Source: Candidatus Binatia bacterium (GTDB lineage: Bacteria > Desulfobacterota > Binatia > DP-6). From it: DNA of 64,000 nt. The stretch is taken from contig JBGQET010000003.1 of assembly GCA_041496545.1 (NCBI GenBank), positions 21,208-85,207 on the forward strand, given 5' to 3'. Positions within the stretch are counted from its first letter, which is position 1. The number at the start of each line of letters is the position of its first letter. The translations under genes were made by a program, and so were the position numbers. This document shows positions 23,447 to 40,077 of the stretch, one piece after another. A model generated the notes under the pieces. It was not told where the DNA came from. It did no database searches and saw only the letters and a list, made by a program, of their open reading frames with translations.

Positions 23447-23647
23447 ATTTTTCTTGACAGCACCGGGGGACGGGCGGTACTTCCTCCGACGTAGATTGTA
23501 TGCGGCTCGCTCAATACTGGTCGCATATTCCCGTTCCAGACACTTGAGTTGCGGAAGCAACGCGCTGGCTTGTGCAGCGGCCCGCGCCGGGGGCAGACGG
23601 CAAAGTATCATGCTAGACAAATCTCACGAGCACAAAGGAGGAAGGGC

Positions 23648-24718
<1,071 letters not shown>

Positions 24719-26722: not shown

Positions 26723-27619
26723 ATGACGATCCTCACCCTAACCGCCCTGGTGGCCCTCGCGCTGGTGCTCTGGCGCCTGGCGCGACGCCTCGCCGACGCC
26801 GAGCGGCAGGTGAAGGAGCTGCGCCTCCTGCACCGCGAGATCGAGGAGGTCCGTGGCGAGCTCGGCCGCGGGCTCGCGCTCACCCGCTCACACCTCGCGG
26901 CGGTCGCCGCGGGCGAGCGTCTCGAGCGCGACGTGATCGCGCGCGGCTTGCCGTACCAGGACGTCGCCCCCGCCGACGCGCTGGCGCTCTACGAGCGCAC
27001 GCCCGATCTCTTCGTGCTCGACGTGCGTACCCCGGCGGAATACGCGAGCGGCCACATCCCGAACGCGCACCTCGTGCCCGTCGACGAGCTGGAGGACCGG
27101 CTCACCGAGCTGCCCCCGCCCGACACGCTGATGCTCGTCCACTGCGCCGCCGGTGGGCGGAGCGCCACCGCGTGCCAGACGCTCGGGCAGCGCGGCTACA
27201 CGCGGCTCCTCAACCTGGCGGGCGGCATGCACGCCTGGGCCGGGCCGCGGGTGCGCGACGAGACCGCGCCCCCGGAGCCACCGCCGGCGCCCGCCGGCAC
27301 CGCCATCACCTACCACGGGGGCAACGTCACCGAGACCCAGGTCGTGGCGGCAATCCGCGAATGCTTCGACCCCGAGATCCCGCTCAACATCTACGACCTC
27401 GGCCTCATCTACGGGATCGACATCGCCGAAGCGCAGATCGCCGTCCGCATGACGCTCACCTCGGAGGGGTGCCCGGCGGCGCGCACCATTCCCGAGGACG
27501 TGAAGAAGAAGGTCCTCGCGCTCGGGCAGCCGAACGTGACGGTCGACGTCGTCTGGGATCCGCCGTGGCATCCGTCGCGCATCAGCGCGGACGGGAAGAC
27601 GAAACTGGGGCTAGCCTAG
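26723..27619 (+). CDS. membrane-anchored rhodanese domain fused to DUF59/SufT-like Fe-S assembly domain
   Basis: N-terminal TM helix plus coiled coil. A rhodanese domain with active-site Cys in HCAAGGRS. C-terminal DUF59/MIP18-like domain (NIYDLGLIYGIDI...TLTSEGCPA). Confidence 0.8.
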   Translation: MTILTLTALVALALVLWRLARRLADAERQVKELRLLHREIEEVRGELGRGLALTRSHLAAVAAGERLERDVIARGLPYQDVAPADALALYERTPDLFVLDVRTPAEYASGHIPNAHLVPVDELEDRLTELPPPDTLMLVHCAAGGRSATACQTLGQRGYTRLLNLAGGMHAWAGPRVRDETAPPEPPPAPAGTAITYHGGNVTETQVVAAIRECFDPEIPLNIYDLGLIYGIDIAEAQIAVRMTLTSEGCPAARTIPEDVKKKVLALGQPNVTVDVVWDPPWHPSRISADGKTKLGLA

Positions 27620-29894: not shown

Positions 29895-32168
29895 TCACGG
29901 TCCCTTGCAGATGTCGCTCGACACCAGGCACGAGGCAGCACCCGGCCACGTACCGCACGTGGTGATCCGGCTGGGAATCGTGCTCTTGAACAGGATGTCG
30001 TAGAGAGGCTGCGCGCCGGTGAAGGCGACGCCGAGCGAGACGACCGTGGTCGTTTGGCCCTCCGAGCAGCAGGGGCCCGTCGCCGGCATGCCGGTCAGGC
30101 TCTGGGGCCCTTGCGGTCCGGAGCCGGCGCGCGAGCAGCCGTCGGCGTTCTGATCGGCGAACTGGGCCGTACCCGTGCCCGTCGTGGGAGTCAGGATGAA
30201 GTCGAATTGTGTGACGACGGTATCGCCCGCGCCCACGTCGAAGTCGGTGGCGCAGTCGGTGGCCAGATCCCCGCTGCCGGTACTGTCCTGCCACGTGGTC
30301 GAGCGGACGGGGATGCCGAGCTGCGTGTTGACGCCGGGTGCGCCGGGCCCGCTTCGCGTGGTGATGATGCGGCCCATCGAGTTCGCGCCGGCCCCGGCCT
30401 GTGACGTGTCGCACGGCCCCTTGTCCGGCAGCGTCACGCACGTCTGCACGCTGACGCAGCACCCCGGACACGTCGCGCCGGGGCACCCGGTGGTCGCGGC
30501 GGTGCTGTCGGTCGTGCAGTACAGACCGGTGCGCGTGCCCGCGTTGCACGTGCGGCAGTCGGGGTTGGCGGTGCAGAAATGGCCGTTCGCGGAGGTGTCG
30601 GCGGAGCACCGCTTGATGCCCGCGCACGGGCATCGGAAGGTCGGATCTCCAGAGCACGAGCCGGCCAGGGTGTCGCAGGGCGCCGTGGTGGGATCGCAGA
30701 GGCCGTCGCGCGTGTCGCCGCTGTGCGTGATGTTCGCGGTCACCGTGGCGCCGGGCGCCGCCGCATCCCACACCGTCCCGCTGCCGAACGTTCCGCCGGA
30801 CTCGCACCCCTGCGGCTCGACCTTGGAACAGAAGTTCAGGGGCGGGATGGTGAAGATGGGCACGAAGAAGCCGGCGAAGGGCACGATGGCGTCGTGCTTG
30901 CAGTCGGCGTCGGGGGGCCCGGCGTCGATCGTGGTCACCACGCCGAGCGGGAAGGTGAACGGCGGCAGCGTGGAGACCCCCAGCGTGCCGTCCGACAAGC
31001 ACGTGCCGCCGCCCGGGCAGTCGCCGTCGTCGAGGCAGGGCGTCCGTCCGAGGCAGGTGTTCCCCGTGCCGCAGATGGAGTCGGTCTGGCACGTCGTCGT
31101 GGCGTCGTTGCTGCAGTGACCCAGGCAGCGGCCAGTGCTCTGGGTGATGATGCGCATCGGACCGCAGCACCCTGGGGGAATGGTGATCGTGGTCGTGCTG
31201 GTCGAGGTGGTCGTGGTGGTGGAGGTGCTGGTGGTCGTCGGGGGCGCGTCCTTGGTCGCGGGCAGGCACAGCTCCTTCACGACCTTCACGTCGAGGTACG
31301 CGTCGCCGAGGTTCGCGTTGCGGGTGCCGGCCTTGCGGCCCGCGAACTTCGGCTGGGGAGGCGTCTTCGCGGGATGGACCAGATAGCAGACCAGGTGCCC
31401 GTAGGGGTCGACCGTCCCCTCCCCTTCCTTGTCGACGGGCGTGCAGAGCTTTGTCGGCTTGACGACGTCGTACGCGAAGCCCGCCGGGCTCGAGAAGTCG
31501 TCCTTCACCGTCACCTGCGTCGGCGCGAAGGCCGGCATCTTGTTGTCCCTGATCTTGTAGCACTTGAAGTTGTTCACACCCGAAGCGTCTCCGGGCGGCG
31601 TCCCGAGCGGAGGCAGCGGGCTCGGCAGGCAGATCTTCGCGGCCGGGTCGCAGACGCGCCCGCTCGGCGGGCAGACGTTGGCGGTGTCCGGCGACTTGCA
31701 CTTGGTGGGAGCCCCGAGGTCCGTCTCGAGCGAGCGCACAAGCAGCGAATCCGGAGCGATCGCGTTCAGCTTCAGCGTGCCGAACTGGTCGAAGGTGAGG
31801 TGCGGCACCGTCTTGTAGCCGGTGTCCTCTTTCTCGGGCGCGGTGTTCTTGAGCTGATAGCCCACCATGTAGACGCTGCTGTGGACGGGCGTGAACACGG
31901 AAGCGCCGTGCGTCTTGGTGGCGGGGTTGCAGACGCTGAGGATCCGGAAGGCGTCGTAGTGCTTGCCCGTCTCGAACTGGTCGCTCAGCAGGATGTTCGA
32001 CTTGACGGGCTTCAGGATGGGCGGCGTGTTGGCCGGGACCTTCGCGACCACCACCTTGTAGCAGAGGTAGTGATCGCCCGGGACGTCGACCGCGCGGGCC
32101 CCCAGGGGACCGCCGAGCAGAAATGCGACCACCGACACCGATCTGATTGCGCCGCCTGCGTGTCTCAT
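29895..32168 (-). CDS. large secreted protein, paralog A: repeated CY/LCxPxxK N-terminal modules + Thr/Ser linker + Cys-rich C-terminal domain
   Basis: AGGAGG RBS. Signal peptide. Four N-terminal modules with xCYKxxx ... LCxPxxK. A TTTSTSTTTTTSTSTTT linker. The roughly 430-aa Cys-rich C-terminal domain is shared with the 32306..35581 gene. No family recognised. Confidence 0.8.
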   Translation of the reverse strand: MRHAGGAIRSVSVVAFLLGGPLGARAVDVPGDHYLCYKVVVAKVPANTPPILKPVKSNILLSDQFETGKHYDAFRILSVCNPATKTHGASVFTPVHSSVYMVGYQLKNTAPEKEDTGYKTVPHLTFDQFGTLKLNAIAPDSLLVRSLETDLGAPTKCKSPDTANVCPPSGRVCDPAAKICLPSPLPPLGTPPGDASGVNNFKCYKIRDNKMPAFAPTQVTVKDDFSSPAGFAYDVVKPTKLCTPVDKEGEGTVDPYGHLVCYLVHPAKTPPQPKFAGRKAGTRNANLGDAYLDVKVVKELCLPATKDAPPTTTSTSTTTTTSTSTTTITIPPGCCGPMRIITQSTGRCLGHCSNDATTTCQTDSICGTGNTCLGRTPCLDDGDCPGGGTCLSDGTLGVSTLPPFTFPLGVVTTIDAGPPDADCKHDAIVPFAGFFVPIFTIPPLNFCSKVEPQGCESGGTFGSGTVWDAAAPGATVTANITHSGDTRDGLCDPTTAPCDTLAGSCSGDPTFRCPCAGIKRCSADTSANGHFCTANPDCRTCNAGTRTGLYCTTDSTAATTGCPGATCPGCCVSVQTCVTLPDKGPCDTSQAGAGANSMGRIITTRSGPGAPGVNTQLGIPVRSTTWQDSTGSGDLATDCATDFDVGAGDTVVTQFDFILTPTTGTGTAQFADQNADGCSRAGSGPQGPQSLTGMPATGPCCSEGQTTTVVSLGVAFTGAQPLYDILFKSTIPSRITTCGTWPGAASCLVSSDICKGP
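31195..31270. repeat. coding low-complexity (ACC/ACG)n tract encoding the Thr/Ser linker of paralog A
   Basis: The plus strand reads ggtcgtggtggtggaggtgctggtggtcgtcgg..., which translates on the minus strand as TTTSTSTTTTTSTSTTT. Confidence 0.8.
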
Positions 32169-32196
32169 GAGGACGAGCCTCCTAGTTAGTTTGGAG
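32169..32196. promoter_or_regulatory. hairpin sequestering the AGGAGG RBS of paralog A
   Basis: On the mRNA (minus) strand: GAGCCTCC-aaactaacta-GGAGGCTC, an 8-bp stem with a 10-nt loop. The 3' arm contains the AGGAGG RBS 8 nt upstream of the ATG at 32168. Confidence 0.5.
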
Positions 32197-32291
32197 GCTC
32201 AGCTAACACGCGTGGGGTGCGACCCACAAGAGCTCTCGCGCTCGCCGGGCCTATGATCGGCCGGAACGCGTCCCCGGTCGCATGCTCGAAT

Positions 32292-32305
32292 GGAACAATT
32301 GTTCC
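32292..32305. promoter_or_regulatory. 14-bp perfect palindrome GGAACAATTGTTCC immediately after the stop of paralog B, upstream of paralog A
   Basis: Perfect dyad symmetry with an AT-rich centre in an otherwise GC-rich intergenic region. Operator-like. Confidence 0.5.
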
Positions 32306-35300
32306 TCACTGCCCCTGGCAGGGGTCGGTCGTCAGAGTACAGGAACCTGGAACGAACGAGCCGCAGGCGGTGATCTTCGTCGGGATGGTGCTGGCGAAGG
32401 TCAGGTCGAAGAGCGGCGGGCCGCCGCTGGGCGCGGTGCCGACGGAGACGACCGTCGTCGTCTGCCCGACGGTGCAACCCGGGCCAGCCGCGGGGGCGCC
32501 GGTCAGCGAGACCGGGCCGTCGGGGCCGGAGCCGGAGCGGAAGCAGCCGTCGCCGTTCTGATCCTTCCACTCCGCGGTGGCGACGGCGGAGCTCGGACGC
32601 AGCACGAAGTCGAACTGGGTGATCGGCAGGTCGCCGCTTCCGCTGTCGAAGCCGGTCTGGCAGGACGAGAGCTGATCGCAGGTCTCGCCCGCCGGGCAGT
32701 TGGTGCTGGCCCCGGAGCACTTGCACGTGCCGGTGCCGATATCGCACGCCGTACCCGGGCACTGGGTGTCCAGGGTGCAGGCGACGCCGCTCCCGTGGGT
32801 GCAGTGGAACGGCGTGGACTCCTGCCAGGTCGTGGAGTGCACGGGGATGTTGACCTGGGTGTGGACGCCGGCCGTGCCGGCCGGGGTGCGGGTGATGATG
32901 GTGCGGGCCTTCGAGTTGTTGCCCGCGCCCGGCTTGGTCAGGTCGCAGGTGCCCTTGGCGCCCAACGTGTCGCAGGTGAGCGCCGCGACGTTGGTACAGC
33001 AGCCGGGGCAGGTGGCGCCGGCGCCGCAGCCGGTGATGCCGTTGGTGGTGTCCGAGGTGCAGAAGAGCCCCGCCCGCGCGCCCGAGGCGCACTTGAAGCA
33101 ACCACCCAGGATCGTGCTGCCGGTGCAGGATTTCCCGACGCTCGAGTGGTCGTTGGAGCAGCGCTTCTGATTCGTGCAGTCGCCGTTTCCGGCGCAAGGC
33201 CAGGACGCGTCGCTGGCGCAGGTTCCGGCGCTGCTGGAGCACTGCGTGGCCGGGTCGCAGGTCCCGTCCGCCGTGTCGGTGCTGAGCTTGATGCTCGCCG
33301 TGACCGCGCTGGGCGGTGCGGTGGAATCCCAGACCGTCCCGTTCCCGTCGGCGCCGCCGGCGGCGCAGCCGCTGTTGACGACCTGGGAACAGTAGTTGAG
33401 GGCCGAGATGAAGAAGATCGGCACGTTGAAGTTGCCCGCCTGGATGATCGCCGGATGGGCACAGTTCGCGTCGGCGGGGCCCGCGTCCACGGTGGTGAGG
33501 ACGCCCAGCGGGAAGGGGAAGGCCGGCAGCGAGTCCACCGTCAAGCTGCCGCCCGAGATGCACGTCTCACCTCCGGGGCATCCCGCGTTGTCGAAGCAGG
33601 TCGTTCCCATCGACGTGCTGCAGTGACCCGTGCTCTGCGTCGTGATGCGGACCGGCGCGCTGCACGCGAGCGTCGTGGTGGTGGTGCTGGTCGTGGTGGT
33701 GGTCGACGCCGTCGTGGTCGTGGTGGGGTGCGTGGTGGTGGTCGTCGGCTGCGTCGTGGTGGTGGTCGACGTCGTCGTGGAGGTGGTGGGCAACACCTTC
33801 TTGTAGGTGGCGATCGCGGCCGACCAGCGGTGCCCCGTGGTGAGCGTCGCCGTCGTGCGGTATTGCCCCATCGCCGAGACGACCTTGAAGCCGGAGAAGA
33901 TGCTGGCCGGGATCTGGCCGCCGCTCGTCGGGTTCCGCGACACGGGCAGCTCGGTGAAGCTCTGTCCCTGGATGAACGTCATCGTGGTCGGCGCCTCGAC
34001 GCCGATCGCGCTGATCAGCAGCTCGTCGTTCATCGTCGTGACCGCGGTGTACCCCGAGTCGGGGAACTTGTCGTTGTCCCAGCCGTCGGAGGTGCGGTCG
34101 AGCATGTTGATGTTCTTGAACTCGTTGACGCTCACCGCCTTGGTGTGGGTGAGCGGGTGGTTCACCGTCACCATGTTCCCCGTCTGCAGCGCCTTCACGT
34201 TGTGCGCGGCGCAGACGATGGTCCGAACGCCGCGGCGGTCGAGGCCGACGTTCGTGTCGACGTCCAGGGTGTAGACGTTCCCCTGCGTGTCGGAGCAGCT
34301 CACCATGCCGTCCATGGGGTCCATGGCGAAGGTGACGATGATGCTGTCCCCCGCCGTGACACCCGGCGCCGGCACGGTGACCAGGGTGGCGGTGCTGTCC
34401 GTCACGTCGTGGGCGACGCCGATGTTGCGCACCAGCATGGGCGGCATCGGCATCATCGTGGTGGTGGTCGTGCTCGTGGTGGTCGCGGTGGTGGTCGCGT
34501 GCGTCGTGGTCGAGGACGTCGTCGCGGTGGTGGTCGCGTGCGAGGTGGACGTCGTCGTCGTGACGCTCGTCGAGGTCGTCGGCGCGTGGGTGGTGGTGGT
34601 CGTCGTCACACACGCCGAGTCGTCGATGCGGCAGCCGAAGCAGCGCCGGCAGTCCGGGCTGTTGGCCGGCGTCTGGATGAGAGCGCCCATGCAGCTCGTG
34701 ATCGCGCCCGTGGCGCTCCCGGCCGGCAGACACTCGCAGGTCTCGCCGCACTCCGACTCGATGACCGCATCGCCGCACTCGCCCTCGCACACCGAGCCGA
34801 GCGGTGCGTCCTTGCCCGCGGGCACGCACAGCTCGATCGCTCCTCGCGCCTTCAGCACCGCGTAGTGGAAGTCGGCGTTGTCGATGGCCACCACGCGGCC
34901 GGCGGACGGCCCTCGGCGCGGGACCCGCTGCGCCTCGTAGCAGAGGAGGTGCTGGGGGTGGTCGGCCGCCGACCCACCCGTGCCGGCCTTGTCGGTCGGC
35001 GCGCAGAGCCTCGTGATGCGCTGCAGGCGGAAGACCGCCGAGCCGAACCGGTCCGTGACCAGCGGCGGCTTCGGGCGGCTGAACCGCGTGCGGCGTTGCT
35101 TGCGGGCGAGATAGCAGGTGAACTCGTCGACGCCGGTGTCGATCGGCGGCTTGGGATCCCCGAGGCTACCCTCGGCGCCCATCGCCGATGGAGCCAGCAA
35201 CCGCTCCGGTCGCAGCACCGTGATCGGATGGCGGCCGAAGAGGTCGAAGGCAACGTGGTTGCTGCGGGCGAAGCGCGCGCCGCTCAACCGGTAGCCGACC

Positions 35301-35581
35301 AGCGACACCTTCGGGTGGCGCGGCTGCGCGCCCTGATCCTTGCGTGCCGGATTGCAGAGCGACACGATCCGCCGCACGCGGTACGTCGCCTTTCCGAACT
35401 TGTCCTCCAGCACGCGACTCGTGGGCGCAAAGCTCGGACCGTCGCCGGTCGCGGCCGCCGTGTAGCACAGATACGGATCGACCGGCGTCTCCACCCGCCC
35501 CTCCGCGGTGAGGGCGTAGGCGGCGTACGCCAGCACGGCCACGCCAACGAGGCGAAGGACTCCTCTTTGATCAGTCGTCAC
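32306..35581 (-). CDS. large secreted protein, paralog B: same N- and C-domains as paralog A with an extra ~230-aa middle domain between two Thr-rich linkers
   Basis: GTG start with AAGGTG RBS. A hydrophobic N-terminus. The C-terminal 430 aa aligns block-by-block with paralog A (RITTQSTG.C, FPFPLGV.TT.DAGP.DA.C.H, CPGCC, TIITR, VHTQVNIPV, QFDFVLRP, GQTTTVVS.G). Confidence 0.8.
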   Translation of the reverse strand: MTTDQRGVLRLVGVAVLAYAAYALTAEGRVETPVDPYLCYTAAATGDGPSFAPTSRVLEDKFGKATYRVRRIVSLCNPARKDQGAQPRHPKVSLVGYRLSGARFARSNHVAFDLFGRHPITVLRPERLLAPSAMGAEGSLGDPKPPIDTGVDEFTCYLARKQRRTRFSRPKPPLVTDRFGSAVFRLQRITRLCAPTDKAGTGGSAADHPQHLLCYEAQRVPRRGPSAGRVVAIDNADFHYAVLKARGAIELCVPAGKDAPLGSVCEGECGDAVIESECGETCECLPAGSATGAITSCMGALIQTPANSPDCRRCFGCRIDDSACVTTTTTTHAPTTSTSVTTTTSTSHATTTATTSSTTTHATTTATTTSTTTTTMMPMPPMLVRNIGVAHDVTDSTATLVTVPAPGVTAGDSIIVTFAMDPMDGMVSCSDTQGNVYTLDVDTNVGLDRRGVRTIVCAAHNVKALQTGNMVTVNHPLTHTKAVSVNEFKNINMLDRTSDGWDNDKFPDSGYTAVTTMNDELLISAIGVEAPTTMTFIQGQSFTELPVSRNPTSGGQIPASIFSGFKVVSAMGQYRTTATLTTGHRWSAAIATYKKVLPTTSTTTSTTTTTQPTTTTTHPTTTTTASTTTTTSTTTTTLACSAPVRITTQSTGHCSTSMGTTCFDNAGCPGGETCISGGSLTVDSLPAFPFPLGVLTTVDAGPADANCAHPAIIQAGNFNVPIFFISALNYCSQVVNSGCAAGGADGNGTVWDSTAPPSAVTASIKLSTDTADGTCDPATQCSSSAGTCASDASWPCAGNGDCTNQKRCSNDHSSVGKSCTGSTILGGCFKCASGARAGLFCTSDTTNGITGCGAGATCPGCCTNVAALTCDTLGAKGTCDLTKPGAGNNSKARTIITRTPAGTAGVHTQVNIPVHSTTWQESTPFHCTHGSGVACTLDTQCPGTACDIGTGTCKCSGASTNCPAGETCDQLSSCQTGFDSGSGDLPITQFDFVLRPSSAVATAEWKDQNGDGCFRSGSGPDGPVSLTGAPAAGPGCTVGQTTTVVSVGTAPSGGPPLFDLTFASTIPTKITACGSFVPGSCTLTTDPCQGQ
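33661..33790. repeat. coding Thr-codon repeat tract (linker 2 of paralog B)
   Basis: gtggtggtgctggtcgtggtggtggtcgacg... encodes PTTSTTTSTTTTTQPTTTTTHPTTTTTASTTTTTSTTTTT. Confidence 0.8.
34441..34620. repeat. coding Thr-codon repeat tract (linker 1 of paralog B)
   Basis: Encodes TTTTTTHAPTTSTSVTTTTSTSHATTTATTSSTTTHATTTATTTSTTTTT. Confidence 0.8.
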
Positions 35582-35975: not shown

Positions 35976-38900
35976 TCAAGGAAGGCAGTACAGCTTCAAA
36001 CCGTCCGAATCGATCGTGTTCCGCGTCGTCCGCGCCTTGAGCTTGATCGACTTGTTGGCGGACTTCGTCGGTGACACGAGCGGGACGTGCACGTCGACGC
36101 GCGGGCCGCAGGCGTCGAACAGTGACGTCTGCGCCGCGACGGCCGCCGCGAGCAACCCGGCGCGGTTGACCGCATCCTCCGGCCTCTTGGCACCGTCCTT
36201 GGCGCTCGGCTTCGACACGTCCACCTGCACCGGAGTCCCGAGCGTCAGCCCACCCGGCAGGCAAGCCGGCAGGCTCGGGTCGTGCACGTTGGCGCAGAGC
36301 CAGAGGTGGAAGACGCACTCGGACGCTCCGGCTCCGAAGTCACACGACGGGTCACCGTTCTGGCAGGACTGCTTCACGTCCGGCTTGCCGAACCTGTCGA
36401 GCGACGGATGGTCGAAGGCGAACTCGATCACGCAGTCGCTGAGCGAGCTCCCCTTGCCGCCGATAAACTGGGCGGTGGGCGGCGGCTCGAGGAAGCAGAG
36501 CGGCGAGCAGCCGTCGCCGGCCGTCGTGTTGCCGTCGTCGCACTGCTCGCCTCGGGCCGTGTCGACGATGCCGTCGCCGCAGCGCGCCGGCCGGCAGTCT
36601 GTGCGGCAGCTCGCGTTGGGAGCGTTCGAGTTCGCGGCGCCGAGGTCGCACTGCTCGACGCCGGTCTGCACGAAGCCGTCGCCGCAGCGCGCCGCGATGC
36701 ACCCGACCAGGCAGGCGTCGGTGTTGCTCGCGTTGCCGTCGTCGCACGCCTCGCCCGGCTCGGGGATGCCGTTGCCGCAGCACGGGGCGAACGGCGTGTG
36801 GACGCAGACGTTCGCCGCCTCGTCGCAGGTGTCGGACGTGCAGGGGTCCGTGTCGGCGCAGTTACGCGCCTGACCCGCCGTGCAGACGCCGCCCTGGCAG
36901 GTGTCGTTCACGCTACAGAACTGACCGTCGTCGCACGTCGTGCCGTTCACCTTGTTGGGATGCGTACAGAGGCCGGAGGCGCAGACGTCGTTGCTGCACG
37001 CGTTCCCGTCGTCGGTGCACGCGCCCGTGCGGTTGGTGTACACGCAGCCCTGCGACGGGACGCAGGCGTCGGTGGTGCACTCCTTGCCGTCGTCGCAGAT
37101 CATCGGCGCGCCGGGCTGGCAGCCGCCCGCCCCGTTGCAGTGATCGCCCACCGTGCAGAGGTTGCCGTCGGAGCACGGCGTGGTGGCGGGCGCCGGCGGA
37201 TGCGTGCACCCCGTCGGCTCGACGCAGGAGTCGAGCGTGCACGGATTCGGGTCCGTGCAGTCGAGGGCGACGCCCGGCACGCAGGCGCCGACGGAGCAGC
37301 GCTCGTTGCCGTTGCAGACCAGGCCGTCGGGGCACGGCGTTCCGTCGGGCAGGAGCTGGTGCCGGCAGCCGAGCAGCGGGTCGCAGGAGTCGATGGCGCA
37401 GCCGCCGCTGACGTTGCAGGCCTCGAAGGCGCAGAACGCGGAGCAGCCGTCGCAGCTGAGCGCCGTTCCTCCGCCGTCGTCGCACTGCTCCGGATACTCC
37501 ACGATGCCGTTGCCGCAGGTCGGGCAGGGATCGAGGCAGTCGGTCTGCCCGGGCGCGGTGCAGCGGGGGATCGGGCTGTTGACGGCGAGCGGCTTGATGA
37601 TCGCGCCGGCGACGACGTTCGGGGCGACGCCGGTCGGGAACTGGAACGTGTTGGTGCCGGGGGTCGAGGGCCCCGCTGACGTGGCGGTCGCGTCGAGCAG
37701 ACCGGCGACGGTGATGTGCTCGCGGCCGGTGAGCGTGATCCCGCCGGCGATGGGAGCGCGCGCGAGAAGACTCGCGGTCGACGCGACCGAGACGTTGCAC
37801 CCGAAAACGTCGATCGAGCCCCCGTCTCCACAACTGCCGGTCGCGTCGCAGCCTCCAGCCCCGACGTCGACGGTGTTCATGAGCGACACGGTTCCCGAGC
37901 CGACGAAACCACCCGCGATGAGCACCGTACCGCCGAGGCTGGCGGCGTTGCGCCCGCTCGCGTCGATCTTCCCGGTCACGGTCAGGTCGCGGCCCGCGAG
38001 CAGGTCGATGCTGCCGGCGCTGCTGCCGCCCGAGACGTCCACCGGGCCGGCGATCGTCGCGTCCAGGTTGGCGTCGACCGAGAAGTCGCCGCCCGTGCTG
38101 AAGGTCCCGTTGCCGTGCGTCGACAGCGCGGCGGTCGACTGCACGGTGATCCCACCCACCGAGCTCAACGTGATGCTGCCACCCGTGCCGTCCGGGCTGG
38201 CACCCTCGACGGTGATGTTCCCCGTGACGATCACGTCCCCGAAGGTCGCGTCGGCGTCGAGCGACCCGCCGCAGGCGCCGAAGCTGCCGTCGTTCGCGGT
38301 GCTACCCTTCGCGGAGATGCTGTCGGTGAGCTGGACCGTGGTGCCGGCGCGGACGCTGATCGAGGCCCCGCTCCCGGCATCACCGTTGGCGTTGCCGGAT
38401 ACCTGGGCGAGCACGACGTCGTCGTGCGCGTCCACGCTGACGGTGCCACCGCCCCCGCCGCTCACGTCGAGGTCGCTGCTGATCTCGACGCGGCTGCCGG
38501 TCGAGGTGACGCTGATGCCGCCGCCGGCCGACTGGGAGCCGCCCGCGGCCTGGACGTCGCTCTGGGCCGTGAACGTCACGGCGCCGCCGGCGACGAACGT
38601 GAGCAGCCCGCCGGCGCCGGCGACGCTCAGGTTGCTCGCCAGCACCCTGCCCGACACCGTGATCGACCCACCGGCGTCGATCTCCATCGTGCCGGCGGAC
38701 ATGTCGGCGGAAACGTCGATGCGTCCGGCGGAGGTGCCGCTCCGTTGCACGTCCACGGCGCCCGTCGTCTGGATCACGATCGTGCCGCCCACGTTGAGTG
38801 GGGCCGCGCCGTTGCCCCGGCCGTCGATCCAGGAGCCGGGCGCGAGCGTCAGGCTCGCCGCCTTGAGGGTGACGACGCTCGAGCCGGTCGCCAGGGTGCC

Positions 38901-39133
38901 GTTGCCCGAGATGACGACCGCCCGCGACCCGAAGTCGAGCGTGCAGCCGTTGCCGATGACGAAGGTCTTCGTGATCGTGCACGTCGCCGGCGGCCCGGAC
39001 GGACACCCCGGGTCCTGCGACACGATCTGCGCCGCGTTGCAGGCGGAGAGGGCGCGTGCGTCACGCGCGAGCGCGAGGGTCGCGAGGACGCCTGCCGCGC
39101 ACGCGAGCCCGGACGCGACGCGCCTATTCCGCA
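35976..39133 (-). CDS. very large secreted Cys-rich repeat protein (Gly-rich beta-helix/adhesin-like N-region, tandem CxDxxxC modules, three Myxococcus-type Cys-rich repeats)
   Basis: Putative GTG start 8 nt inside the upstream beta-helix gene, giving signal peptide VRNRRVASGLACAAGVLATLALARDARA. About 10 tandem PCxDGxxCTxDxCxxxGC modules. CGNGIxEPGExCDDGN x3. The C-terminus ends in a ...LC.P..K...LYCLP module resembling those of the paralog N-domains. The start is uncertain. Confidence 0.75.
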
Positions 39134-40077
39134 CAGTCCCGCCCGTTGATCTCGCACTCGGACGGCATGACGACGCCCAGCCGCTCACCGTTGCCGCTCG
39201 CCCGGTTGCCGCCGCCGTCGACGCCCCCGACGTGGATGCCGCGCTGGCCGTTGTTGGTCGCGGTGTTGCCCTGGAGCCGGATGTCGCCGCCCGAGCCCGT
39301 GATCCCGTCACCCGCGTTGCCGCGGGCGACACAGCCGTGCACGTCGTGGTGCATGCCGGCGAGCCGGATGCCGTCGCGCGCCCCGTCCGCGGCCACGCAG
39401 TCGACCAGCGCGAGTCCCATGCCGTTGATGCTGATCGCCGCCATGCCGCTCCCCTCGGCCACGATGCCCGCCCCGGGGGCGCCGAGCCCGGCGTTCCACG
39501 CGGCGACCGAGTATCCGAAGCGGCGGCTGTTCACCGCGCGCGTGGCGTGGATGCCGAACCACGTGCCGCCGAGCGCGAAGCCGTCGCGGCCGGACTCGCG
39601 CGCCTCGACGTCACGGATCTCGTAGCCCGGCGCGTCGACGTTGACGCCGTCGCGCCCGCTGCGGACGACGGCGATCGTCGAGAGCAGCCCGAGCGAGTCG
39701 GCGCCGTGCGCCAGCACGCCGTCGCGGAACCCTTCGATCGAGGCGCGCCCACCGCTGCTCACGATGCGCGTCCCACCCGCGCCGCCGCGGAGCACCCAGA
39801 TGCCGGCGCCGTGGCCGGTGCCGCGGAGCGTTTTCCCGTGCAGGTCGATGGTGAGCGCCGCGCCGTGCGGCTCAGCCTGGACGAGCAGACCGTCGCCGGG
39901 GCAGGCCTCGCGCACCACCGGGTCGTCGCCGAGGACCACGTCGGCCACCACCACGTCGCCGCAGGCGCAGGGGACGCGCTGGCCCTGGACGTCGTCGCCA
40001 CAGAGCTTGGCGCTCGCCGGAGTGCCGGCGATCGCCAGCAGCAACATCGTCGACGCGATGCGCCAATCCATGGGCAC
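39124..40077 (-). CDS. secreted right-handed parallel beta-helix repeat protein
   Basis: AAGGAGG RBS 10 nt before the GTG at 40077 (ATG at 40071 as an alternative). Signal peptide. Gly/Asp-rich PbH1-like repeats (NxGxGIxxxG). Translationally coupled to the 35976..39133 gene. Confidence 0.8.
   Translation of the reverse strand: MPMDWRIASTMLLLAIAGTPASAKLCGDDVQGQRVPCACGDVVVADVVLGDDPVVREACPGDGLLVQAEPHGAALTIDLHGKTLRGTGHGAGIWVLRGGAGGTRIVSSGGRASIEGFRDGVLAHGADSLGLLSTIAVVRSGRDGVNVDAPGYEIRDVEARESGRDGFALGGTWFGIHATRAVNSRRFGYSVAAWNAGLGAPGAGIVAEGSGMAAISINGMGLALVDCVAADGARDGIRLAGMHHDVHGCVARGNAGDGITGSGGDIRLQGNTATNNGQRGIHVGGVDGGGNRASGNGERLGVVMPSECEINGRDCAE

Follow-up and report, generated by a model that had tools for sequence, protein, structure and literature searches.

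What kind of protein is encoded by the two adjacent genes at 29895..35581 on the minus strand of contig JBGQET010000003.1 from a Candidatus Binatia bacterium? The window analysed here is a 64,000-nucleotide stretch of this contig, and the two genes, hereafter A and B, had been flagged from the sequence alone as a tandem pair of giant secreted paralogs (the original prediction). A and B are large (757 and 1091 amino acids, aa) rather than giant. They are built from three uncharacterised modules, of which DUF7450 is catalogued and the other two are uncatalogued yet recurrent in metagenomes. Both proteins end in a conserved Cys-rich domain, predicted to fold as a barrel, that stands behind variable N-terminal heads. 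The reading that we favour, tentatively and a little short of probable, is that A and B are Sec-exported, disulfide-stabilised, non-enzymatic proteins of binding or matrix type.

Two paralogs share one layout

Gene A (29895..32168, minus strand; 757 aa) starts with ATG, carries AGGAGG 8 nucleotides (nt) upstream, and encodes a signal peptide, two DUF7450 units, a Thr linker and the C-terminal barrel domain. Gene B (32306..35581, minus strand; 1091 aa) starts with GTG. It repeats the layout of A and adds a Cys-rich segment, the insert domain, another Thr linker and one more Cys loop. In BLASTP the C-domains of the two proteins (420–450 C-terminal residues) are 47% identical over 476 columns (E 1e-114), and the N-regions, over 230–280 residues, are 30% identical (E 3e-27). 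This similarity is far beyond chance, and A and B are paralogs, which bears out the tandem homologous pair at exact coordinates. The window holds no third copy. All the C-domain sequence blocks quoted in the original prediction were found in both A and B.

The C-terminal domain belongs to a rare, unnamed family

The C-terminal domain spans aa 332–757 of A (29898..31175, minus strand; 36 Cys) and aa 639–1091 of B (32309..33667, minus strand; 38 Cys). It had been described as a shared domain of ~430 aa with ~40 cysteines. The sharing and the approximate cysteine count hold, but the conserved unit is a core of ~290 aa with ~10 conserved cysteines, into which sub-clade-specific Cys loops are inserted. 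The core aligns over its whole length in A, B and 23 independent members (25-sequence alignment A1). It carries the motifs FPFPxGV, GCxSG, WD, GDTxDG-C, IPV..TW, QFxFIL, NGDGC, GPCCxVGQxTTVV and PL(F/Y)D, and it ends at the extreme C-terminus with CxLTT(D/N)xC(L/Q)D. A and B match the family profile made from this alignment over its full length, including the terminal C-x(4-7)-C.

Most of the 36 and 38 cysteines sit in the Cys-rich loops. The core is split by two loops in A, loop 1 (30993..31130, minus strand; aa 347–392) and the larger loop 2 with the CPGCC motif (30372..30713, minus strand; aa 486–599). B has three loops on the minus strand: loop 1 (33554..33625), loop 2 with CPGCC (32912..33274) and loop 3 (32657..32806; aa 926–975). 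The third loop is confined to B, as is a 10-Cys segment at aa 263–325; neither feature had been pointed out in the original prediction. The element CNAGxRxGLxCTxDx(6)GCPGATCPGCC of the largest loop is present in 5 of 167 family proteins, which places A and B in a small sub-clade.

Among 5.8 billion clusters, a word-indexed search picked out 24 relatives of the C-domain; nearly all are JGI metagenome proteins without a name, and one comes from a Candidatus Binatia metagenome-assembled genome (MAG). A profile search with HMMER, run exhaustively over 1.84 billion representatives, extended the family to 250, with 122 at E<=1e-30. The members with a taxonomic name are from Candidatus Binatia only. 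Pfam, NCBIfam, PADLOC and PHROGs have no model that matches the C-domain, and no sequence relative was found in the PDB with the C-domain profile or full-length B. As judged by sequence, the C-terminal barrel is a real, rare and unnamed family. A contig scan with the trimmed core alignment, which relied on two narrow peptide patterns, found no relative.

The conserved Cys-containing terminus ends 127 of 165 members. The remaining members are mostly fragments, or their barrel is followed by a GSPSGAF(L/V)D tail or by a Thr linker and transmembrane helices. The tail C(L/Q)GSPSGAF(L/V)D, or a Thr-rich linker and hydrophobic helices after the barrel, was seen in P0005, P0037, P0043, P0059, P0062 and P0089, and in P0007 and P0058; the tail motif has no nameable match. 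The N-terminal partners of the barrel vary, and include DUF7450 (7 of 75 members), beta-propellers, one dockerin, Lys-rich helical heads and Cys-rich heads.

The core is predicted to fold as an eight-stranded barrel

AlphaFold2, supplied with the 25-sequence alignment, returned an all-beta core with a predicted local distance difference test (pLDDT) score of ~90 and a predicted template modelling score (pTM) of 0.65. The big Cys loop is unmodelled (pLDDT ~30). Fold comparisons of the core gave, among others, matches to soluble barrels (DynF 8.4, PsbO 7.2, YceI 7.0, avidins ~7) and, after these, to the C-barrels of HpuA, fHbp and TbpB (5–6), with identities of 2–12% overall. A Foldseek search of the C-domain against the PDB gave nothing significant (best E 0.24, template modelling score <0.25). 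The model therefore assigns the core to a fold class, the elongated eight-stranded barrel, with no family-level relative among solved structures.

The likeness to avidin, YceI, DynF and lipocalin-type barrels raises the alternative that the lumen binds a small hydrophobic or cofactor-like ligand, and that A and B are extracellular scavengers or carriers. The relevant matches are at only 5–12% identity, without sequence kinship or a common ligand-binding motif with the soluble elongated or small barrels (PsbO, avidins, YceI and DynF), and Foldseek returned no match. We regard a ligand-filled lumen as unlikely.

The core is rich in Asp (8%), Gly (13.5%) and Thr (12.9%) and poor in Lys, Arg and Glu (together <4%) and in Tyr and Trp (together 1.3%). 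Its strands are mostly polar on both faces and its C-terminus is non-aromatic. Together with the ten conserved cysteines and the transmembrane helices that follow the barrel in some members, these features argue for a soluble, disulfide-stabilised barrel over a membrane one. Five disulfides are probable in the core. The core motifs DxNGDG and GDTxDG recall Ca2+-binding loops of the dockerin and FG-GAP type and may point to Ca2+ dependence.

The order of signal peptide, passenger, linker and C-terminal barrel also recalls type V secretion. The barrel could accordingly be imagined in the outer membrane, as an NspA/OmpW/OmpA-like barrel or a short autotransporter-like anchor that displays the N-terminal modules. 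The low Tyr and Trp content, the cysteines and the lack of a hydrophobic face on most strands are against such a placement. The terminus CxLTTDxC(L/Q)D is not an aromatic beta-signal, and a membrane barrel would sit awkwardly with the helices found past the barrel in some members. Pfam and NCBIfam models of autotransporters, OmpA and OmpW gave no match. Compared with known eight-stranded outer-membrane barrels (NspA, OmpW, the N-domain of OmpA/OprF, and PagL), the core shares 2–8% identity, is unlike in composition and terminus, and gives no significant Foldseek match. We consider an outer-membrane barrel very unlikely.

DUF7450 repeats and Thr-rich linkers make up the N-terminal half

The N-terminal module had been called unrecognised, but Pfam PF24247 (DUF7450) matches A in two stretches with 46.2 bits (E 5e-12), well above the gathering cutoff of 27 bits. 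In B the same model scores 15.6 bits, which is under the cutoff, and here the assignment is carried by the alignment of the B N-region to that of A given above. DUF7450 is an already catalogued repeat of unknown function, for which a literature search returned no paper.

In A, unit 1 (31719..32087, minus strand; aa 28–150) was delimited by PF24247 and the repeat alignment, and unit 2 (31242..31580, minus strand; aa 197–309) contains half-repeats 3 and 4. Between the units lies a spacer with four cysteines (31581..31718, minus strand; aa 151–196). In B, unit 1 occupies 35177..35491 (minus strand; aa 31–135) and unit 2 occupies 34796..35140 (minus strand; aa 148–262), the latter assigned by homology to A and the repeat alignment. 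Three to four modules of about 70 aa had been proposed. The repeats and their CY and LCxPxxK motifs hold, but the alignment resolves four half-repeats of ~50 aa per protein, with the consensus [FL]xCY ... DQFG ... LCxPxxK. The two motifs occur together three times per protein and are ~37–44 aa apart, closer than the ~50 aa first given. In A, half-repeats 1, 3 and 4 each have a Cys pair. Half-repeat 2 lacks both cysteines, in A and in B alike, so that one half-repeat per protein differs from the DUF7450 model in this respect. The joint loss of the two cysteines fits a disulfide that links them.

The Thr/Ser linkers were confirmed as such, with 80–85% Thr+Ser, and are encoded by imperfect tandem repeats. 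A has one (31176..31241, minus strand; aa 310–331, 82% Thr+Ser). B has two, linker 1 (34457..34606, minus strand; aa 326–375, 80%) and linker 2 (33668..33787, minus strand; aa 599–638, 85%). In B, the 63-aa Cys-rich segment with 10 Cys (34607..34795, minus strand; aa 263–325), which is not in A, precedes linker 1.

The insert of B is a second unnamed domain

An extra domain of about 230 aa between the Thr linkers of B had been proposed, and it is found at 33788..34456 (minus strand; aa 376–598, 223 aa). Its structure is modelled as a beta-sandwich with a pLDDT of 95. Weak fold matches were obtained to carbohydrate-binding modules (CBM27/22/6), TNF-like lectins, the BclA C-domain, phage receptor-binding heads and collagen-binding domains, and the model thus weakly resembles binding modules. 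As with the C-domain, no Pfam, NCBIfam, PADLOC or PHROGs model matches and there is no PDB sequence relative, which upholds the statement that neither domain has a nameable family. Matches of the insert-family profile to PDB sequences were discarded, as they fell on the disintegrin repeats of relatives and not on the insert domain.

Three relatives of the insert were found by single-sequence search and 116 by profile search. All 116 are unnamed and come from "Deltaproteobacteria", Dehalococcoidia and Limnocylindria MAGs and from metagenomes. In these proteins the domain lies directly after the signal peptide and before disintegrin-like, DUF4215 or Ig-like repeats, a position that marks it as an independent, mobile module. 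The suggestion of modular domain shuffling is therefore supported: the insert recurs as a mobile module in relatives, and A and B differ by module gain or loss.

Predicted export of A and B

A and B both begin with a charged n-region, a hydrophobic core and an A-x-A-like end, as read by eye and by hydropathy. The predicted signal peptide of A (32091..32168, minus strand; aa 1–26) is MRHAGGAIRSVSVVAFLLGGPLGARA, with an n-h-c layout and a hydropathy of 2.3, and that of B (35504..35581, minus strand; aa 1–26) is (M)TTDQRGVLRLVGVAVLAYAAYALTA. Export had been deduced from signal peptides and strong ribosome-binding sites. The former have the expected form at both N-termini, but a strong ribosome-binding site is uninformative on export. 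In the public records of two loci of the same gene order (L081 and L082) B is called as 1078 aa from a GTG 13 codons downstream, which skips 35543..35581 (minus strand). We prefer the longer open reading frame because a start at the later GTG would cut the charged n-region off the predicted signal peptide.

Among 105 full-length members of the barrel family, 94 have a signal-like N-terminus and just 2 have a lipobox-like motif. A lipoprotein reading of A and B was rejected, as the first 35 aa of each contain no Cys. Known C-terminal sorting tags (MYXO-CTERM, PEP-CTERM, the type IX secretion system C-terminal domain, LPXTG and GlyGly-CTERM) were likewise dismissed, since no NCBIfam model of them matched A or B at E<=1. 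Neither sequence has a hydrophobic C-terminal segment.

The barrel itself might nevertheless serve export or retention, as it does in cargo of the type XI secretion system (T11SS, or Slam), and direct the heads to an outer-membrane translocon or a surface tether. The outline architecture is alike, in that T11SS cargo consists of variable N-terminal heads and a conserved C-terminal eight-stranded barrel (PMC12282271), and in 127 of 165 members of the present family the barrel closes the protein with a conserved terminal motif. However, no Pfam model of TbpBBD or related barrels matches, and no DUF560 or other secretion gene was found among the Pfam-annotated genes within ~10 kb in six family contexts (A/B, P0013, P0016, P0017, P0067 and P0091). 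T11SS has been described for Proteobacteria (PMC12282271), and the lineage of A and B is not a proteobacterium. Compared with TbpB, fHbp, HpuA and hemophilin, the barrel of A and B is twice as large, is Cys-rich and lacks a lipobox. At ~290 aa, and with probably five disulfides, the domain is bulky for something that acts as a signal alone, and some members run past the barrel with a linker and transmembrane helices. By analogy with T11SS cargo or the type IX C-terminal domain, the barrel could still be an undescribed, sequence-unrelated sorting, export or retention domain of diderm soil lineages (Binatia, Myxococcota-like) whose translocon is encoded elsewhere. Both forms of this proposal seem improbable to us.

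A proposed role of A and B as exported binding or matrix proteins

The favoured reading, in which A and B are exported binding or matrix proteins, can be put together as follows. The signal peptide would send A and B through Sec, past the inner membrane. There each of the four DUF7450 half-repeats would be held together by its cysteine pair, if it has one, and the C-terminal domain would form an acidic, soluble, disulfide-stabilised eight-stranded barrel, decorated with Cys loops in this sub-clade. The barrel may act as a constant base, which either binds a common partner or serves retention, while the N-terminal modules would be interchangeable binding heads on extended Thr-rich stalks; B would have additionally acquired the beta-sandwich module. 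The function would then be extracellular or cell-surface binding, of the adhesin or matrix type.

The binding role is supported by the N-terminal partners of the family, which are of binding type (DUF7450, beta-propellers and dockerin). The weak matches of the insert to binding modules also speak for it, and the place of the genes in a run of secreted-protein genes speaks for the reading as a whole. The absence of any match other than DUF7450 in Pfam, NCBIfam, PADLOC and PHROGs supports a non-enzymatic protein. Several points count against this reading. The fold matches of the core are topological only, at 2–12% identity and with a best Foldseek E of 0.24, and the gene neighbourhoods yield no functional hint. 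The genes, their paralogy, the modules, the two families and the predicted folds are what the analysis shows, while export past the inner membrane, disulfide bonding, the binding role and the split between base and heads are inferred. A conserved domain at the extreme C-terminus behind variable heads would, by analogy, also fit a sorting or anchoring domain.

A toxin-like role had also been suggested, in which A and B are toxins or bacteriocin-like effectors and one module kills or permeabilises target cells. The features that favour it are generic ones, as the proteins are secreted, Cys-rich, modular and encoded by diversified paralogs. No toxin, pore-forming or enzymatic domain was found in any library, no small immunity-like gene adjoins A and B or occurs in the family contexts, and a conserved C-terminus with a variable N-terminus is the reverse of the arrangement in polymorphic toxins. 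The partners in the family are moreover of binding type, and the toxin suggestion is not borne out; we give it a very slim chance. A role in anti-phage defence or an origin as a phage protein was rejected, as neither PADLOC nor PHROGs gave a match.

Among the closest known systems are the myxobacterial Cys-rich repeat proteins (TIGR02232 myxo_disulf_rpt/PF13948 DUF4215), which are likewise exported, disulfide-rich and modular and whose function is not known. Relatives of the B insert are fused to DUF4215 or disintegrin-like repeats, and the gene that adjoins B upstream is a member of this group. In contrast, A and B themselves have no match to TIGR02232 or DUF4215 at E<=1, and their Cys-rich parts are the barrel loops and one short segment of B. 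We group A and B with a known kind of protein from soil diderms, which is exported, modular and rich in Cys.

If the description of the families holds, two domain families that fold with confidence in models are added to the catalogue, the ~290-aa Cys-rich C-terminal barrel and the ~225-aa beta-sandwich, both of which have so far escaped Pfam, NCBIfam and the PDB and are largely confined to uncultured soil and sediment lineages. A strictly C-terminal barrel behind interchangeable heads is also a candidate anchoring or sorting module, which, if true, would bear on surface display in diderm bacteria. The immediate value is one of annotation rather than mechanism.

Genomic setting and other copies

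Two genes with signal peptides lie upstream of B (35976..40077, minus strand). The first encodes a Cys-repeat protein of 1052–1118 aa (TIGR02232/DUF4215, E 6e-19; also Dicty_CTDC). The second encodes a 317-aa Gly/Asp-rich protein with 'GRDG' repeats, beta-helix-like and with no Pfam match, and overlaps the start of the next gene. Together with A and B they make up a block of ~10 kb in which four genes for secreted proteins run in one direction. The last 174 aa of the Cys-repeat protein (35979..36500, minus strand) resemble the N-terminal heads of the barrel-family members P0006 and P0013 (BLASTP E ~1e-5), which suggests a weak domain-sharing link between the neighbours.

A hydroxyacid dehydrogenase gene lies 46 nt downstream of A. 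Beyond it are genes for a GluQ-tRNA synthetase-like protein, CMD, rhodanese/Fe-S assembly, ClpA, SDR and acyl-CoA synthetase. The GC content of the locus (0.69) is slightly under that of the flanks (0.73–0.76) and a strand skew is present; both would be due to Thr- and Cys-rich coding rather than foreign origin. Overall, GC values span 0.69–0.77. A promoter and terminator scan of the locus gave background level. A single sub-threshold Rfam match, which fell inside coding sequence, was rejected as a regulatory RNA.

Barrel-family members on long contigs stand alone among unrelated housekeeping genes and have no conserved neighbour. Through the GluQ-tRNA synthetase gene, 80 loci were compared for synteny (best 59% identical, in Myxococcales MAGs; 58% in Enhygromyxa), and none has a relative of A, B, the upstream gene or the dehydrogenase. 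These matches do not establish the Myxococcota origin implied in the original prediction; the barrel-family members that carry a name are Candidatus Binatia.

Protein A is on record as four near-identical variants. Five loci (L081–L085, from NCBI MAG GCA_041485145.1, JGI and Logan assemblies) share their gene order with the window locus; their B differs by at most one residue, and they represent the same population. The copies checked for strain variation are thus essentially identical and all of one population. A more distant protein of 747 aa, P0067 (403..2646 of L086; also in L087–L089), shows every part of the architecture of A, the CPGCC loop among them, and is 53% identical to A. Its locus differs from that of A and B and adjoins a 38%-identical dehydrogenase, and it was found in three of the samples that also contain the window contig. 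P0067 represents either a third paralog in the same organism or the copy of a co-resident relative.

Two further genes of the window were noted. A smaller DUF4215 Cys-repeat protein of 389 aa (23549..24715, plus strand) shares ~40% identity with a portion of the product of the gene upstream of B, and in the syntenic loci L081 and L082 a gene with an FGE-sulfatase domain lies near it. The other gene encodes a 298-aa fusion of rhodanese and FeS_assembly_P domains (26723..27619, plus strand).

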